Assembly: GCA_944320285.1 (NCBI GenBank)
Contig: CALUGX010000127.1
Span: forward strand, 14,941-78,940
DNA length: 64,000 nucleotides
Source of the DNA: an uncultured Prevotella sp.
GTDB taxonomy: Bacteria; Bacteroidota; Bacteroidia; Bacteroidales; Bacteroidaceae
Direction: 5' to 3'
The translations under genes were made by a program, and so were the position numbers. Each line of letters opens with the position of its first letter. The stretch's first letter is position 1. The notes beneath the pieces were generated by a model that did no database searches, had not been told where the DNA came from, and saw only the letters and a program-made list of their open reading frames with translations. Positions 27,124 through 33,465 of this stretch are shown piece after piece.

Positions 27124-27663
27124 ATGGAACTGAAAGGAACAAAGACCGAGAAAAACCTGCAAGAGGCATTCGCAGGTGAGTCACAGGCACGCAACAAGTA
27201 CACTTACTTTGCTTCAAAGGCAAGGAAAGACGGATACGAGCAGATCGCCGACCTGTTCGAGGAGACAGCACGCAACGAGAAAGAGCACGCTAAACTGTGG
27301 TTCAAGTATCTTGAGGGCGGCGACATCAAAGACACCGCAAGCAACCTTGAGGCAGCCGCCGCTGGCGAAAACTACGAGTGGACTGATATGTACGACCGTA
27401 TGGCCAAGGAAGCCGAAGAGGAAGGTTTCAAAGAAATTGCAGCCAAATTCCGTATGGTGGCTGCCATCGAGAAATCTCACGAGGAGCGTTACCGCAAGCT
27501 GTTGAACAACGTAAACGAGGCCAAAGTGTTTTCAAAGGACGGCGAGTGCGTATGGGTATGCGCTAACTGCGGCCACATCGTTATCGGCAAGAAAGCCCCG
27601 AAGATCTGCCCCGTTTGTAATCATCCGCAGAGCTTCTTCCAGGTTAAAGCTGAGAACTATTAA
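27124..27663 (+). CDS. rbr: Rubrerythrin
   Basis: [20 protein letters not shown] and C-terminal CANCG...CPVC rubredoxin domain. Confidence 0.96.
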
Positions 27664-27685: not shown

Positions 27686-27724
27686 GAAAAAGACGGACGT
27701 GCTGTGTGTACGTCCGCCTTTCTT
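27686..27724 (+). terminator. Intrinsic terminator of rbr
   Basis: CGGACGT / ACGTCCG stem with A/T flanks. Confidence 0.65.
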
Positions 27725-27743: not shown

Positions 27744-29533
27744 TTAATAATACATATCTATTTCATATAAAGTTTCCCTACAAGAATTTAACAAATCTTC
27801 TCTTGATCGATCCCCTTGTTTTTCAGCCGCCTCATACCATTCACAAGCCTTGCGAAGATAATTTTGATATTTTACAGCATTTTTTACACTATTCTTTGAT
27901 AATGCAGTGTATTTGCCCAACAATAATCACCCATCCAATTTTGCGCATAAACCTCTCCTGCATTTGCTGCTTCAAGATACAAACTGAGAGCTTTTTCTTT
28001 ATTTTTCTTTACGCCTTTGCCTTGATCATAGCAGAAAGCCAAGAGACTTTTAGCTATAACATGGCCTTGCTCTGCCGACTTTGAGAACAATGACACAGCC
28101 TTTGAATAATCTTGTTTCACGCCTCCTTTTCCTAAAAAATAGCTTCCGCCCAAAATGTACTGACTATTTGCATATCCCTGCTCTGCAGGATTAGTCGCCC
28201 ACTTTACTGCTTCAGAAAAATTGCCTTCTTGATAATATATATCAGCAAGCCTGTCCTGCGCATACAAATCTCCTTGCTCTGCTGATTTTGTCCACCAATA
28301 AACGGCAGTTGAAATATCCTGCTTCACGCCTTTACCATAGAAATAGCACTCGCCTAAATCATTGTAGGCCAGAAAATTCCCTCCTTTAGCCGCATTAGTA
28401 AGCCAATAAACTGCTTTGGAGTAATCTTTCTCCACCCCCTCTTCCATTATAATAACAATCAGCCAAAAGCACATGAGGTATATATGAAAAATGATTTTGT
28501 TCTACAGCTTTAGTCAATGTACTGCCTTTGAATAATCCAAAGGCAATTCAGTGCCCAAATAATACATTTCACCCAACCTCTTTTGCGCTAATGCATTGCC
28601 CTGTTCTGCCGCTTTTGTCAGCCAATATTCCGCTTTTTGAGCATTTTCGTATATATTAATATTACCTAATATCCTTTGTGCTTCTGAGTTTCCGGCTTCC
28701 GCAGATTTTGTCAACCAGTTTACAATCTGTAACGAATCCAGTTGTACTCCTTCACCTTCCATATAACAATAGAACAGCTCTAATTGTGCCTCGACATTTC
28801 CGCTTTCAGCCGCTTTCGTATAATAAGATACGGCCTTTGAATAATCTTGCTCAACACCTTTACCATAATAATAACTATTTCCCAGCGTGTTTTGAGCTGC
28901 AACATTACCTTGCTCTGCAGCTTTGGTAAACCAATATATTGCCTTTGATGAGTCTTGTGTAGCGTATTGGCCTTTGGCGTAAAAAACTCCCAACTTACGC
29001 TGAGCACAAGTGTCGCCACGCTCCGCCACCTTAGTCAACCAATATATGGCCTTTACTGTATCGCGCTGAGTGCCTTCGGCTGAATAGCAATTCCATAAAT
29101 AATATTGAGCATCAGCGTTTCCACCGTCTGCCAATTTCGTAAACCACTGAATGGCTTTTGCATAATTTTGATTTAGCCCCTTACCCTTATAATAATTGAG
29201 GCCTAATTCAAACTGGGCCGTTGTATCACCGTTCTCTGCGGCCTTTACATACCAGTATTCATAATTTTGAATATCATTTTTCTTCAAATAATAGTCCCCG
29301 ATAAAAATTTGCGCAGGAGTATAATTTTCTTCCGAAAGCTTCAGCATCTTTTTGCAGGCCTTAAGATAATCTTTATCAGACTTTCCAGACCCTTGCAAAT
29401 CCAACAATATTTTATTATACTTATTTTCAAGTTTAGCCAAATCTTTTTCGCTCTTCACCGATTGAGATAAAGACGAAACACAAACGCCAAACATCAATGC
29501 AATGATGTTAACAACTAATAAAAAACGTCTCAT
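27744..29533 (-). pseudogene. Sel1-repeat exported protein gene (~596 codons) interrupted by three frameshifts
   Basis: Signal peptide, then many AQ..LG..Y..G.GV.QDY.KA..W..KAAEQG repeats. Repeat-like text continues across frame changes near 28515, 28437 and ~27895 to TAA at 27744. Confidence 0.8.
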
Positions 29534-29564
29534 AGTATTTCCTTTCCATTATAAAAAAACTTTT

Positions 29565-30518
29565 TCATTTAGCCTTGGCCTGTTTCTGCCAATATGCAGC
29601 TTCAGAATAACTTTGCCTGACACCGTGGCCTTTCAAATAGCATATACCTAAGTTGTACATGGCAGACAAATGTCCTTTTTCCGCAGCCCGTCTATACCAT
29701 CGCACTGCCTTTGAATAATCTCTTTTTATTCCATGCCCACCTAAGTCGTAACACACACCTATGGCAAACTCGGCATTCACATCACCTTGTTCTACGGCTT
29801 TTTCAAACCAATATATGGCTTTTGGGAAGTCTCTTTTTATACCATAGCCGCCTTTGTGAAATAAATATCCAAGATTATAAAAGGCATTCGCATCACCATG
29901 CCCGGCAGCTTCAGTAAACCAAGTGACAGCCTTCGAGTAATCTTTTGGCGTTCCGGCATCAATTCCATAATAACGTCCGAGATTATTTTGCGCCTTCACA
30001 TTGCCTTGTTCGGCGGCTTTCATATACCAATTAACTGCTCTTGATTTATCTTTTGCGACACCGTTGCCTAAAGAATAACATGAACCCAAGTTATTTTGAG
30101 CGTCAGCATATCCTTGCTTTGCCGACTTCTCAAACCATTGTACGGCTTTCTCGTAATCCTTCTTTACGCCGTTTCCCCAATAGAAGCAATTTGCCAATTT
30201 ATATTGGGCTTCCGCATTACCAAGCCCGGCTGCGCTCGTATAATATTTTACAGCCTTACCATAATCTTTTGGCAGTCCACGGCCATGATAGCAGCAATCA
30301 CCCAAACGGGTCATGGCGATGGCCGAGCCGTTGTTTGCCGCCTGCTCATACTTGCTTACCGCTTCTTTATAATTATTTGCCTTATAACAACTATCAGCAT
30401 ACGCGCAAGTGTACAAATTGACATCTTTCTGTGACGGCTCTGAACTGCAAGCTGACAGCCCATAACACAATGCAGCCACAGAAATCACATGAACGAAAGA
30501 TTTTTCTATCTTTTTCAT
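29565..30518 (-). CDS. Sel1-repeat lipoprotein
   Basis: Lipobox LSAC and about 7 Sel1-like repeats. ATG at 30518. Confidence 0.9.
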   Translation of the reverse strand: MKKIEKSFVHVISVAALCYGLSACSSEPSQKDVNLYTCAYADSCYKANNYKEAVSKYEQAANNGSAIAMTRLGDCCYHGRGLPKDYGKAVKYYTSAAGLGNAEAQYKLANCFYWGNGVKKDYEKAVQWFEKSAKQGYADAQNNLGSCYSLGNGVAKDKSRAVNWYMKAAEQGNVKAQNNLGRYYGIDAGTPKDYSKAVTWFTEAAGHGDANAFYNLGYLFHKGGYGIKRDFPKAIYWFEKAVEQGDVNAEFAIGVCYDLGGHGIKRDYSKAVRWYRRAAEKGHLSAMYNLGICYLKGHGVRQSYSEAAYWQKQAKAK

Positions 30519-30728
30519 TTCCAAAAGGTCTAAGCCAGATTAAAAATGCTATCGAACTATAAATTACCTTGCACACTATTTCAGACTGTTTTCCAACAAC
30601 TCATCGGTCGTTTATCCTCTTGGCCTTGAAAAACATCTCTGAAATAGCGCACAACTTGATAAGAATTAATTTGTGGCGTCCACTTAAATTAATCCTTATG
30701 ACTTACTTATAAAGTTTCTTTTTTATCT

Positions 30729-31212
30729 TTATTTATTAGACAAAAACTCTTTCAACTTCTCTTTTACCACTTCCAAATCTTTGTCATGGTTACGCACAAG
30801 TTTCTTACTTGTTCCAAAATCCGAATAAGATATTATAACAAGGTTTATGCCGTGCTGTGGCAGTATATTCCGGCGGCGTTCGTCATAGTTTCTACGCTGT
30901 TCGCCACGCGAAACGCCACTTACGGTTGGCTTGTTATCAAACAATGGTACGGCTTCAGTGTGCTGACATTCGTGGTATTCAACAACAAGTTTCAATTCTT
31001 CATAATATGCGTCAACAGGGAGTTTTCGCCCTGTATCCCCTTTCAAGAAATCGAAACGGTGTTGGCGACTTGCCCTTAGTCCGAGAACTTCATCGCAAAG
31101 ATTTATGACATATTCCTCGTCACGACCTTTCCGACTGCTGCCAGATTTCAACATATCCAACACATTTTTACTAAGGCCCAACTCCTCCAATTTTTTTATT
31201 CAAGTCTGTCAT
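30729..31212 (-). CDS. Vsr/DUF559-like PD-(D/E)XK nuclease-fold protein, with a +1 slip in an A7 run just after the likely ATG (or a TTG start at 31190)
   Basis: LPVDAYYEELKLVVEYHECQH and YDERRR resemble the Vsr-like D.y.p...lvvE.dg..H / ..D..r. pattern. Confidence 0.6.
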
Positions 31213-31216
31213 AATA

Positions 31217-31471
31217 TCACATATTTAAATGGTTATACAAGTCGTTTATCACTTGATTTTCAGCTCCGTTGATTTTCTTACCTTTGGCGGCCTCATATCC
31301 GAGCTTCAGTTTTGCTTTTTCCACAGTGTTAAGATCCTCCGCGTCACTTACGCCAAGTCCTTTCAAGAACGACATTACTTTGGTAAGTGCATTATACCTG
31401 CATTGCGCAATGCCTTTACACTGGTATGTCAACTGCACCTTTTCATACAATTCATCTAAACTCATAATCAT
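31217..31471 (-). CDS. Hypothetical protein (82-84 aa)
   Basis: ATG after an A-rich leader, helical amphipathic sequence, 4-nt gap to the next ATG. Confidence 0.7.
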   Translation of the reverse strand: MIMSLDELYEKVQLTYQCKGIAQCRYNALTKVMSFLKGLGVSDAEDLNTVEKAKLKLGYEAAKGKKINGAENQVINDLYNHLNM

Positions 31472-31489
31472 GATTTTGTTTTTCGCCTC

Positions 31490-31760
31490 CCATTAGGCTC
31501 CGATAAGGTTGGCAAGGTTAGTAAACGGAAAGTGTGGAGCCTGGTGCTTGCAATCTCATGGAGGCTCTGGTAAAACCTTTGGACGTTACAAACAACAACC
31601 CCACACTTGTATATTCCCGGCGGCAAGTTGCCGCATGGGAATACCAAGCAGTGAGCGTCGTAGCCGCATCCCCGTCCAAATTGAAATTTACCAGATTTCC
31701 ATGAGGGAACGAAAGCATGACACTTTCACCGATATGTCTCGCCCTGTGCAAGGGCGTATG
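31490..31760 (-). ncRNA. Candidate structured leader RNA (nested stems, alternative pairings)
   Basis: Five nested complementary segments plus two 5' hairpins between a clear promoter and the first ORF. Coordinates given under findings. Confidence 0.55.
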
Positions 31761-31761
31761 G

Positions 31762-31795
31762 TGCAAATATACGGATATTTTACCATAGTGACAAA
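31762..31795 (-). promoter_or_regulatory. Bacteroidota sigma-A promoter (-33/-7) for the leader and downstream genes
   Basis: TTTG (31792-31795), 20-nt spacer, TATATTTGCA (31762-31771) on the minus strand. Confidence 0.7.
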
Positions 31796-31864
31796 TTGTA
31801 GGGTTGTTTTTTATATAAAGTTTTGCGTAGGTTTTATTTTTCATTTTGCCGCGCCTCGTAAAAC

Positions 31865-31965
31865 GCTGACTGTCAACTGGTTTGCAACAGGTATCCTTTT
31901 ACGTTGCAAAAGGTATCCTTTCGCGCTGCCGTTTGTATCCTTTCGCATTGCGATAAGTATCGGTC
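31865..31965. repeat. Degenerate 22-bp-period array
   Basis: GTATCC at 31891, 31913, 31935 and GTATCG at 31957. Confidence 0.7.
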
Positions 31966-32014
31966 TGGGGTTACGCCCGGCACCGGCGTATGCGCGCAAG
32001 GCCGCGACATGGCG

Positions 32015-32929
32015 TCATGAATTGCGCTTCAAGGCCTCCTCATAAATCTTGCGGACGCGCTCGCGAAGATACTGTGGCTTGATGACTTCAAGTGAACGGC
32101 TACGCGAAAGCAGCTCCATCACGAAGTCGTTGGTGATGCGCAGACGGAGGGAGATACGCAGTTCGTCGGGCGTGTCGGCAAGTATGCGTTGCGAATGGTG
32201 TATAGGGTCTGACTTGACAAATCGGCCGTCAAGGGCGTCATAGCGCAGTTCGATGTCCTCTACGGGCATAGCCGTGTCGTTCCACAAGCCGTAACAGTCG
32301 CGGAACAGTTCGGCCACATCAATATCGGTATGCCGCTTGAACGTGCACGTGTCGTCCACACGCAAGTTGCGTATGCGGTCGATGCCAAACGTCTTCATCA
32401 CGCTGCCGTCGTATGCCAATAGGTACCAGCGGCGGTTTGACTCCTTAAGGTAATGCGGCAACACGCTGAACGGCTTTTCGGTGCAGTCGTTACGGTAGTT
32501 AACGTAAGTGAACGACACCGGGTGCAGATCACGGATGGCTTTCACCAAGGGCATTATCCACTCGCTGTAAACGGGGCGGTGATGCTCGGCGAGGACGAAC
32601 GACGAGAGGTTGTTGTCGCTGCCGAGGGCGTTGAGAAGGTCGAAATTCATCATCAGCTCGGCTATCCGTTCGTCATATTCCATGTAATCCTCGCTAATGT
32701 AATATCCCTGCCGGGAACGGTCGAACCGTATTTCAACGCCGAAAAGGCTGTCGATGTCGGCTATGTCACGCTCAAGCGTGCGTGAGCTTATCGCCGCAGC
32801 GTCATACTATGTATCCATCTGCTCGTTGACAAACTTTAGCAGTTCGTCTTTGGGCACAAACTTTCCGCCGTGCCTCACTTTATTTAATATAAGGAGCAGC
32901 CTCCTTATTCCGTCTTTCTGTTTGCTCAT
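32015..32929 (-). pseudogene. HTH-WYL-WCX transcriptional regulator with an in-frame TAG at codon 41
   Basis: Frame from ATG 32929: MSKQKDGIRRLLLIL...QMDT*YDAAAISSRTLERDIADIDSLFGVEIRFDRSRQGYY (wHTH), then RRWYLLAYD...KTFGIDRIRNL (WYL). Only one stop, at 32807-32809. Confidence 0.85.
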
Positions 32930-32953
32930 GATATGTACGTTTCGCGTTTTTCA

Positions 32954-32989
32954 TGCAAATATAAGAAGCGGTAACGACAAAACTTGTCG
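32954..32989 (-). promoter_or_regulatory. WYL gene promoter (-7) with an adjacent palindromic operator-like site
   Basis: TATATTTGCA at 32954-32963 (minus). CGACAAAACTTGTCG palindrome at 32975-32989. Confidence 0.6.
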
Positions 32990-33159: not shown

Positions 33160-33465
33160 ATGGCATTACACTTTACAGGAATAATCATTGCTGCGGCGTG
33201 CTTTTTGGTAATCGGCCTGTTCCATCCGATAGTCGTAAAAACAGAATACCATACGGGCACACGCTACTGGTGGGCATTCCTCGTAGGTGGAGTGGCCTGC
33301 ATTGCTGCGGCCCTGTTTGTGGCCGACGCCATAATATCCGCTGTGTTGGGCGTAATCGGGGCGTCGGCACTATGGTCGATAAAAGAGCTTTTTGAACAAC
33401 GCGACAGGGTGCTGAAGGGATGGTTCCCGATGAATCCGAAACGAAAAGAAGAATACGATGAATAG
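33160..33465 (+). CDS. DUF4491-family small membrane protein
   Basis: IGLFHPIVVKTEY and WSIKELFEQRDRVLKGWFPMNPKR, recognised from memory of the Bacteroidales family. Confidence 0.75.
   Translation: MALHFTGIIIAAACFLVIGLFHPIVVKTEYHTGTRYWWAFLVGGVACIAAALFVADAIISAVLGVIGASALWSIKELFEQRDRVLKGWFPMNPKRKEEYDE

Follow-up and report, generated by a model that had tools for sequence, protein, structure and literature searches.

Do the five minus-strand genes that lie between rbr and DUF4491 in an uncultured Prevotella sp. form one system, and what would such a system do? The locus was analysed within a window of 64,000 nt (the whole stretch of DNA under study: contig CALUGX010000127.1, positions 14,941–78,940, forward strand), in which the list of open reading frames (ORFs), Pfam and sequence reading place, in the order of transcription, a WYL-domain regulator, an 84-aa ORF, a Vsr-like nuclease and two Sel1-repeat genes. 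These five co-directional genes had been noticed in a preliminary description of the same DNA, and all of them are confirmed, on the minus strand, where it placed them.

The reading favoured here, to which we give roughly even chances of being right, is that of a decaying mini defence island in the style of BrxR and CapW, apparently exchanged horizontally and lodged at a hotspot, whose core would consist of an autoregulated WYL regulator and a two-part Vsr-like nuclease. What would speak for defence is that the WYL gene and the short nuclease are collinear at six sites, that the candidate operator is invariant and that the cargo consists of DNA enzymes. The surroundings are suggestive of defence as well, with predicted PDC-M33A/B/C genes behind the nuclease at one site (L174) and two GmrSD genes at the site of the window in a sister species.

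Co-occurrence of the WYL regulator and the nuclease

The genomic context was read for eight clusters of the short form of the nuclease. A WYL gene encoding ~300 aa stands just upstream and in the same orientation in seven of the eight, distributed over six chromosomal sites in Prevotellaceae, which are the junction of rbr and DUF4491 (window and L044), that of UbiA and DUF4494 (L036–L043), a sigma-70 gene (L046, L050), the junction of a GH97 and an esterase gene (L048), HipBA (L176) and gyrB (L174). Five of these six sites carry the same leader RNA and small ORF immediately before the nuclease, and L174 keeps the WYL gene and the nuclease without either. The preliminary description had staked its module on whether the components recur together in other genomes. 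At other sites, the nuclease and the small protein do occur together with the WYL gene and the leader, and the Sel1 genes do not.

The genes after the nuclease are LRR_5 in L036, L046 and L050 and Band_7_1/GYF_2 in L048, with Sel1 only in the species of the window. At L174, genes matching the PADLOC candidate PDC-M33A/B/C (L174:4497–8350; E 5e-96, 7e-53 and 1e-23) come after the WYL–nuclease pair and are co-oriented with it, with an ORF of 94 aa between them and the nuclease. Since the genes downstream of the nuclease differ between sites, the Sel1 genes fall outside the module. The preliminary description had linked them to the system; with LRR_5, Band_7_1, uracil-DNA glycosylase (UDG) or PDC-M33 genes following the nuclease elsewhere, they are separate neighbouring cargo, of a type that is commonly headed by the leader family described below.

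Where a leader copy has a close WYL homologue upstream, its cargo is a DNA enzyme in all loci except L164, with the Vsr-like nuclease in some, UDG in L050, L127, L158 and L169, GIY_YIG_2 in L071, L083 and L117, and Mrr_cat in L098 and L112, showing that WYL follows the type of cargo rather than the leader. Distant WYL homologues (28–48% identity, L016–L034) were considered as further module copies and discarded, no leader being present within 1.5 kb of them; the neighbouring ORFs of L016 and L017 are unrelated.

The WYL regulator and its palindrome

The regulator gene of the window (32015–32929, minus strand; Pfam and sequence reading) is a pseudogene of 304 codons plus stop. Pfam identifies the WYL domain (PF13280; 4.3e-10 for the window protein, and E 2.5e-10 to 5e-12 where it was searched along with three intact homologues) and the WCX domain (PF25583, E about 1e-8 to 3e-08) in the window protein and intact homologues. 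In PADLOC, a WYL model matches the protein at 7.5e-27, all matching models being generic WYL models. Sequence matches in the PDB are weak (E about 1e-3) and include several WYL-domain regulators, among them PafBC (6sj9). No Pfam helix-turn-helix (HTH) model matches the N-terminus of the window protein or of the intact homologues at E<=0.01. The N-terminal region of ~100 aa is conserved (alignment A11), and we infer that it forms a winged HTH.

The consensus of Bacteroidota promoters is TAnnTTTG. A −7 box of this kind, TATATTTG, was read upstream of the WYL gene at 32956–32963 on the minus strand, and the TATCTTTG/TATATTTG column is conserved across WYL promoters (alignment A11). The palindrome CGACAAAACTTGTCG, of the form CGAC-N7-GTCG (32975–32989), lies 11 nt upstream of this box and is the candidate WYL operator. 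Within the 64-kb window it occurs once, compared with 0.72 expected occurrences, which alone is not significant. However, CGAC..TTTTGTCG is invariant in eight of the eight WYL promoters aligned, which come from different species and sites, always 10–11 nt upstream of the −7 box, and each WYL locus holds exactly one copy of CGAC-N7-GTCG. A second operator at the leader promoter was sought and rejected, as the 600 nt that follow the WYL stop contain no such palindrome, even with one mismatch allowed. The invariance of the palindrome in the eight WYL promoters, together with its absence from the leader promoter, points to autoregulation, by a WYL regulator that would control itself through the CGAC-N7-GTCG inverted repeat, as regulators of the BrxR type do. 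The transcriptional control of the nuclease that the preliminary description had proposed is, as far as direct control by WYL goes, not borne out by this pattern, the conserved candidate operator being at the WYL promoter only.

WYL regulators of the BrxR family are encoded alongside many kinds of defence island, and the promoters of their own genes contain inverted repeats to which they bind (PMC9122601); single-stranded DNA (ssDNA) releases CapW from DNA (PMC11662680). The regulator of the window resembles these proteins in its length of ~300 aa with WYL and WCX domains, in being encoded first and co-oriented with the cargo, and in the conserved inverted repeat of its own promoter, to which binding is predicted. 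The cargo is also mosaic as in BrxR/CapW islands and includes the defence candidates PDC-M33 and Mrr, with GmrSD at the same site. However, the window WYL protein is only weakly similar to solved WYL-domain proteins (E about 1e-3) and lacks a Pfam HTH match, and its palindrome has arms of 4+4 bp with a 7-bp spacer, compared with arms of 10–11 bp and a 5-bp spacer in BrxR and CapW. The islands differ as well, since a separate promoter and a long structured RNA stand between regulator and cargo here, and the cargo is neither BREX (bacteriophage exclusion) nor CBASS (cyclic oligonucleotide-based antiphage signalling system).

The Vsr-like nuclease

The nuclease ORF (30729–31212, minus strand) has 160 codons in intact alleles. 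Its AlphaFold2 (AF2) model, with a predicted local distance difference test (pLDDT) of 84.5, was compared with known structures by Foldseek, and the best matches are chains of AbaSI (4par) and E. coli Vsr (1cw0, 1vsr) at a probability of 0.99–1.0 and a query-normalised template-modelling (TM) score of 0.42–0.48, placing the model in the Vsr-like fold, as the preliminary description had supposed. The sequence finds no match in Pfam (E<=0.01) or NCBIfam (E<=0.1), including the Vsr and DUF559 models, and none in a PDB sequence search, so that the nuclease is a fold relative of Vsr and not a member of its family.

Five residues, D67, E78, E81, Q83 and H84, are invariant in 38 nuclease homologues and are candidates for an acidic/His catalytic set. 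The family comprises more than 1095 homologues, in short forms of 135–170 aa and long forms of 225–268 aa with variable N-termini. Weak matches (E about 1e-7) were also found to the phage families phrog_559 and phrog_9084, which are annotated as HNH or homing endonucleases.

The nuclease resembles Vsr and the modification-dependent enzymes of the PvuRts1I/AbaSI type both in its best fold matches and in joining a small nuclease domain to a separate DNA-recognition part. It differs from these enzymes in having no SRA-like domain, the partner here being the 84-aa helical adaptor or another N-terminal head, and no adjacent cytosine methylase.

The 84-aa protein and its relatives

The small ORF before the nuclease (31217–31471, minus strand) encodes a protein that matches nothing in Pfam, NCBIfam, PADLOC or PHROGs. 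Its AF2 model is a five-helix bundle (pLDDT 93.9), for which a fold search against the PDB returned only insignificant SAM-like matches and no known antitoxin fold. An all-against-all HMMER comparison found homologues in only 16 representative clusters, two of which are fusions, one joining the 84-aa domain to a GIY-YIG-like domain (P0122) and the other to UDG (P0125). The split version, an 84-aa-type ORF followed by GIY_YIG_2, occurs in L083. A second type of adaptor, recognised by the motif SKQKGIRAKIRKIGLYWSE, forms one polypeptide with the nuclease in long forms (P0006, P0007, P0012, P0029, P0050) and stands free before UDG in L050:3839–4087 and L127:4261–4476. A third (INKVLKEYF...GLPIRKLLRELD) forms the N-terminus of other long nucleases, and in L172 an 84-aa ORF with a TSCPD domain precedes the nuclease.

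Judged from these relatives, the 84-aa protein is a putative swappable N-terminal adaptor domain, detached from the enzyme encoded downstream, and belongs to what appears to be a combinatorial family in which at least three adaptor types are paired, fused or split, with Vsr-like, GIY-YIG or UDG domains. The preliminary description had counted the small protein as an independent component, a status at odds with the occurrence of this domain within GIY-YIG-like and UDG fusion proteins. We also considered whether a frameshift had divided one original gene into the 84-aa ORF and the nuclease; this was rejected, since both frames contain stops (31217–31219 and 31200–31202), which rules out a fusion by a single shift, and intact alleles keep two ORFs.

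The arrangement recalls a type II toxin–antitoxin pair, with the 84-aa protein as antitoxin, the nuclease as toxin and the WYL protein as an extra regulator. Such a pair would account for a small gene directly upstream of the nuclease (4 nt away in intact alleles), it would suit the HipBA genes that adjoin the module in L176, and the out-of-frame nuclease start of the window (see below) could be a detoxifying mutation. However, the fusions P0122 and P0125, together with those of other adaptors to the nuclease, fit a subunit and not an inhibitor, short nucleases occur without the 84-aa partner in L174 and L172, and the fold search of the 84-aa protein gave no known antitoxin fold. The fusions of adaptor and enzyme thus disfavour the toxin–antitoxin explanation, which we consider very unlikely, and favour an enzyme built of an adaptor and a warhead.

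The same enzymes raise the question of repair. The locus could be a DNA-damage repair regulon, in which the WYL protein senses ssDNA as PafBC or DriD and the Vsr-like nickase, UDG/MUG and GIY-YIG enzymes mend deaminated or mismatched host bases. The folds of the cargo are those of base-excision and very-short-patch repair, and the weak PDB sequence matches of the WYL protein lead to PafBC (6sj9) and other WYL-domain regulators. The module is also rare in viral contigs; a phage-borne module was rejected on the same count, as 2.9 million viral contigs yielded only three nuclease relatives and four leader copies. However, a patchy distribution with horizontal exchange is atypical of repair genes, and among 61 relatives a nuclease homologue is present in six and the adaptor in one. 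A strain-variable hotspot as location, ready decay, combinatorial shuffling of domains, adjoining PDC-M33 and Mrr nucleases and the lack of a dcm-like methylase nearby also argue against a repair regulon, which we regard as unlikely.

The leader RNA

A gap of 543 nt separates the WYL gene from the 84-aa ORF and contains a repeat array, the leader promoter and the leader. The promoter was found by sequence reading on the minus strand (−33 TTTG at 31792–31795, −7 TATATTTG at 31764–31771) and is kept in five WYL-linked loci (alignment A3). It is followed by a structured 5′ leader RNA of ~285 nt (31472–31757, minus strand; RNAalifold on 5 and on 64 sequences), which makes up the last ~285 nt of the gap and is better conserved than the proteins of the module. 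The family folds into a rod of ~200 nt with invariant loops (GGAAATCTGGTAAATTTCAA, TACCAGAGCC) and, shortly ahead of the start codon, a helix whose pairing crosses that of the closing stem. In the window, the invariant 20-mer GGAAATCTGGTAAATTTCAA lies at 31681–31700, the closing helix pairs 31720–31727 with 31528–31535, and the crossing helix pairs 31536–31542 with 31495–31501.

For the rod and crossing helix of 64 leaders, 93.1% of the cells are paired, and 22 of the 46 pairs show double changes. None of 500 shuffles reaches the observed value, and slid controls give 41–47%. The two promoter motifs, the palindrome and the structured leader of the preliminary description have thus all been found, with covariation backing the leader. 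In 93% of the cells an alternative 1:2 / 3:4 pairing could form as well; its columns are near-invariant, and it does not rise above the shuffles. Most copies have a U-run behind the closing stem; in the WYL-linked copies of Prevotellaceae this run is interrupted (CCACACTTTCCGTTT). Functionally, the family may be likened to leaders of the attenuator or riboswitch type, with the difference that the alternative fold here lacks covariation support.

The preliminary description had counted the leader among the parts of the proposed system. However, an exact scan for the 20-mer found it in at least 119 species records, and 99 of 120 copies have further signature blocks. These copies, catalogued as loci L053–L171, range from Bacteroidales to Flavobacteriales (Bacteroides, Alistipes, Prevotella, Muribaculaceae, Flavobacterium, Capnocytophaga, Chryseobacterium and others), with two copies in some metagenome-assembled genomes (L057 and L115; L079 and L107). 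A leader specific to WYL loci can be rejected, as the upstream neighbours are heterogeneous and include WYL in only 8 of 93 cases. The genes downstream are mostly unrelated ones for signal-peptide proteins, with LRR_5 in six, BACON in four, DUF4988 in three and Sel1 in one. A BLAST-type search with 241 nt of the leader in 401 order-level genomes returned its own genome only, in contrast to the at least 119 species of the exact scan, a gap that may reflect sparse sampling or a first-look filter.

Rfam 15 has no match to the leader in the window (E<=1) and none at the gathering score in 16 further copies. A tRNA, a tmRNA and a known riboswitch were rejected for lack of an Rfam or ARAGORN match, and so was 6S RNA, which in Bacteroidales is RF01693 (bioRxiv 10.1101/2024.04.05.588293) and for which there was no Rfam match either. 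The leader is a portable promoter–leader RNA family that spans the Bacteroidota and is absent from Rfam 15.

In one copy (L042:4155–5742), an integrative element carrying a tyrosine integrase, HTH_17, AAA_25 and a Toprim primase is inserted in the leader beside the invariant 20-mer, taking the place of the leader promoter and of ~65 nt of the leader 5′ end. Conserved leader sequence seems to have served there as an attachment site, as tRNA genes do.

Insertion site and decay

A sister species (DUF4491 85% identical) has the same junction, asparaginase-rbr on one side and DUF4491-rlmH-uxuA on the other, with different cargo in each strain, namely two type IV restriction genes (GmrSD) in one and an ArsR/DsbD/thioredoxin/ArsP cluster in the other (L185:1720–5502, L186:2258–5426). 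The site is thus a hotspot whose content varies between strains, and another species has a different synteny there.

Such turnover would also be expected if there were no system at all, that is, if unrelated cassettes had gathered at the hotspot, the nuclease being a selfish, homing-type enzyme whose DNA-binding heads can be exchanged, WYL a common companion and the leader a mere means of expression. The preliminary description had kept piled-up cassettes as its fallback, and the unrelated cargo at the same site in the sister species agrees with that part. Further agreement comes from the match of the nuclease to the phage HNH/homing families phrog_559 and phrog_9084 and its stand-alone long forms, from a leader that heads unrelated genes behind a promoter without operator, and from the insertion of an integrase-bearing element at the leader. 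However, the WYL–nuclease core recurs, its adjacency being kept over six sites with nuclease identities down to ~60%. The cargo linked to WYL is strongly biased towards DNA enzymes, unlike that of the rest of the leader family, and no intein, intron or homing-type target-gene context was seen. An explanation without any system is judged unlikely.

The preliminary description had called the locus decaying, with three of its genes lesioned. All three lesions are real, with the correction that the one in the nuclease is limited to this assembly. The WYL frame has a single interruption, a TAG at 32807–32809 that replaces CAG at codon 41. The WYL gene of L044, from a strain 98.8% identical, has CAG at this codon and a 1-nt deletion ~5 codons later (L044:1373–1395). 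Thus, the N-terminal region of WYL has been struck independently twice, in two strains of the same species, which suggests either that selection favoured losing the regulator or that constraint on it had eased.

In the nuclease, an A7 run (31191–31197) puts the natural ATG (31212) out of frame and leaves an ORF of 153 codons from a TTG at 31190. The run is A6 in the alleles L044, L045 and L036, and the nuclease of L044 is intact. A three-frame reading shows the second Sel1 gene to be a single long gene in which three frameshifts have left ORFs of 339, 40, 196 and 59 aa, and a similar split is called in this gene in L045, from another sample. With the A7 frameshift, the three Sel1 frameshifts and the independent WYL lesions, decay is well founded. 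Judging from the WYL amber codon, the nuclease start out of frame and the Sel1 gene broken three times, the system in the window is predicted to be largely inactive. The window copy is of little interest alone.

Proposed mechanism and weight of the defence reading

If the locus is a WYL-gated defence island, a WYL dimer would sit on the palindrome until ssDNA from phage attack or DNA damage releases it, by analogy with CapW and BrxR, and its release would increase transcription through the island. The leader would form a second gate, at the RNA level; leaders of this family probably gate the transcription or translation of whatever gene follows. The adaptor may target the nuclease to, or regulate it on, foreign and possibly modified DNA. 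The sensing of ssDNA, the derepression, the gating by the leader and the target of the nuclease are parts that we infer from the analogy with characterised regulators and enzymes.

Several findings weigh against the defence reading. The leader promoter has no palindrome, so that WYL could act on the cargo only if transcription ran on from its own promoter or through a site that escaped notice. About 90% of the leader copies have no WYL, which, together with the WYL–nuclease pair that lacks the leader in L174, shows that the three parts are separable. The long fused nucleases are stand-alone genes in unrelated contexts. PADLOC-DB 2.0.0, a check that the preliminary description had proposed, contains no system that matches the nuclease or the 84-aa protein at E<=0.1. 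The enzyme types concerned, UDG, Vsr-like and GIY-YIG, also have classical roles in DNA repair. Finally, the window copy is broken, and any function here would be vestigial.

A likeness to Brig1/GmrSD defence may be seen in the UDG-superfamily enzymes that can take the place of the nuclease downstream of WYL and the same adaptors, and in GmrSD at the same hotspot. The UDG cargo may be akin to the defensive DNA glycosylases of the Brig1 type. Carried further, these analogies would make the locus a representative of a new Bacteroidota defence system, in which an ssDNA-sensing WYL repressor and a two-state leader act as checkpoints and adaptors direct interchangeable enzymes against foreign or modified DNA; this proposal is a tentative one, and we hold it to be doubtful.

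If the island is defensive, gut Bacteroidota would possess an unnamed effector family with swappable adaptors and Vsr-like, GIY-YIG or UDG domains, represented in metagenomes by over 1000 members. WYL-gated islands on the BrxR/CapW principle would then extend to this phylum, with CGAC-N7-GTCG as the operator. The locus is also an entry point to a phylum-wide leader RNA absent from Rfam, which here has a regulator of the sensor type on one side and a potentially toxic enzyme on the other.

Flanks, composition and repeats of the island

The island is bounded by rubrerythrin (rbr, 27124–27663) and DUF4491 (33160–33465), both on the plus strand. Neither an integrase nor a transposase was found among the ORFs of 27.7–33.0 kb by the ORF list and Pfam, and the four genes downstream of WYL have a GC content of ~35–45%, compared with ~55% in the WYL gene and ~47–52% in the flanks. 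On both points, the lack of mobility genes and the higher AT content of the downstream genes, the preliminary description was right.

The first Sel1-repeat gene (29565–30524, minus strand) encodes a lipoprotein with seven Sel1 repeats and an LSAC lipobox (Pfam Sel1, 2.2e-69). The second, described above (27744–29533, minus strand), has a signal peptide and Pfam Sel1 matches on its pieces. A GC-rich hairpin with T-runs on both strands (27694–27716) separates the stop codon of rbr from the end of the Sel1 array; it is likely a bidirectional terminator and marks the left edge of the island.

In the upstream third of the gap between the WYL gene and the 84-aa ORF, TRF detects 3.6 units of a repeat with a 22-bp period, like AAAGGATACCTTTTGCAACG (31882–31961). 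About 25 further copies of such 22-bp-type arrays occur in the same genome, always between genes. Similar arrays border the hotspot in the sister species, in the gaps upstream of DUF4491 of L185 and L186, and there is none in the WYL–leader gap of L176. The array at 31882–31961 is neither part of the leader nor specific to the module, and it belongs to a family dispersed throughout the genome.

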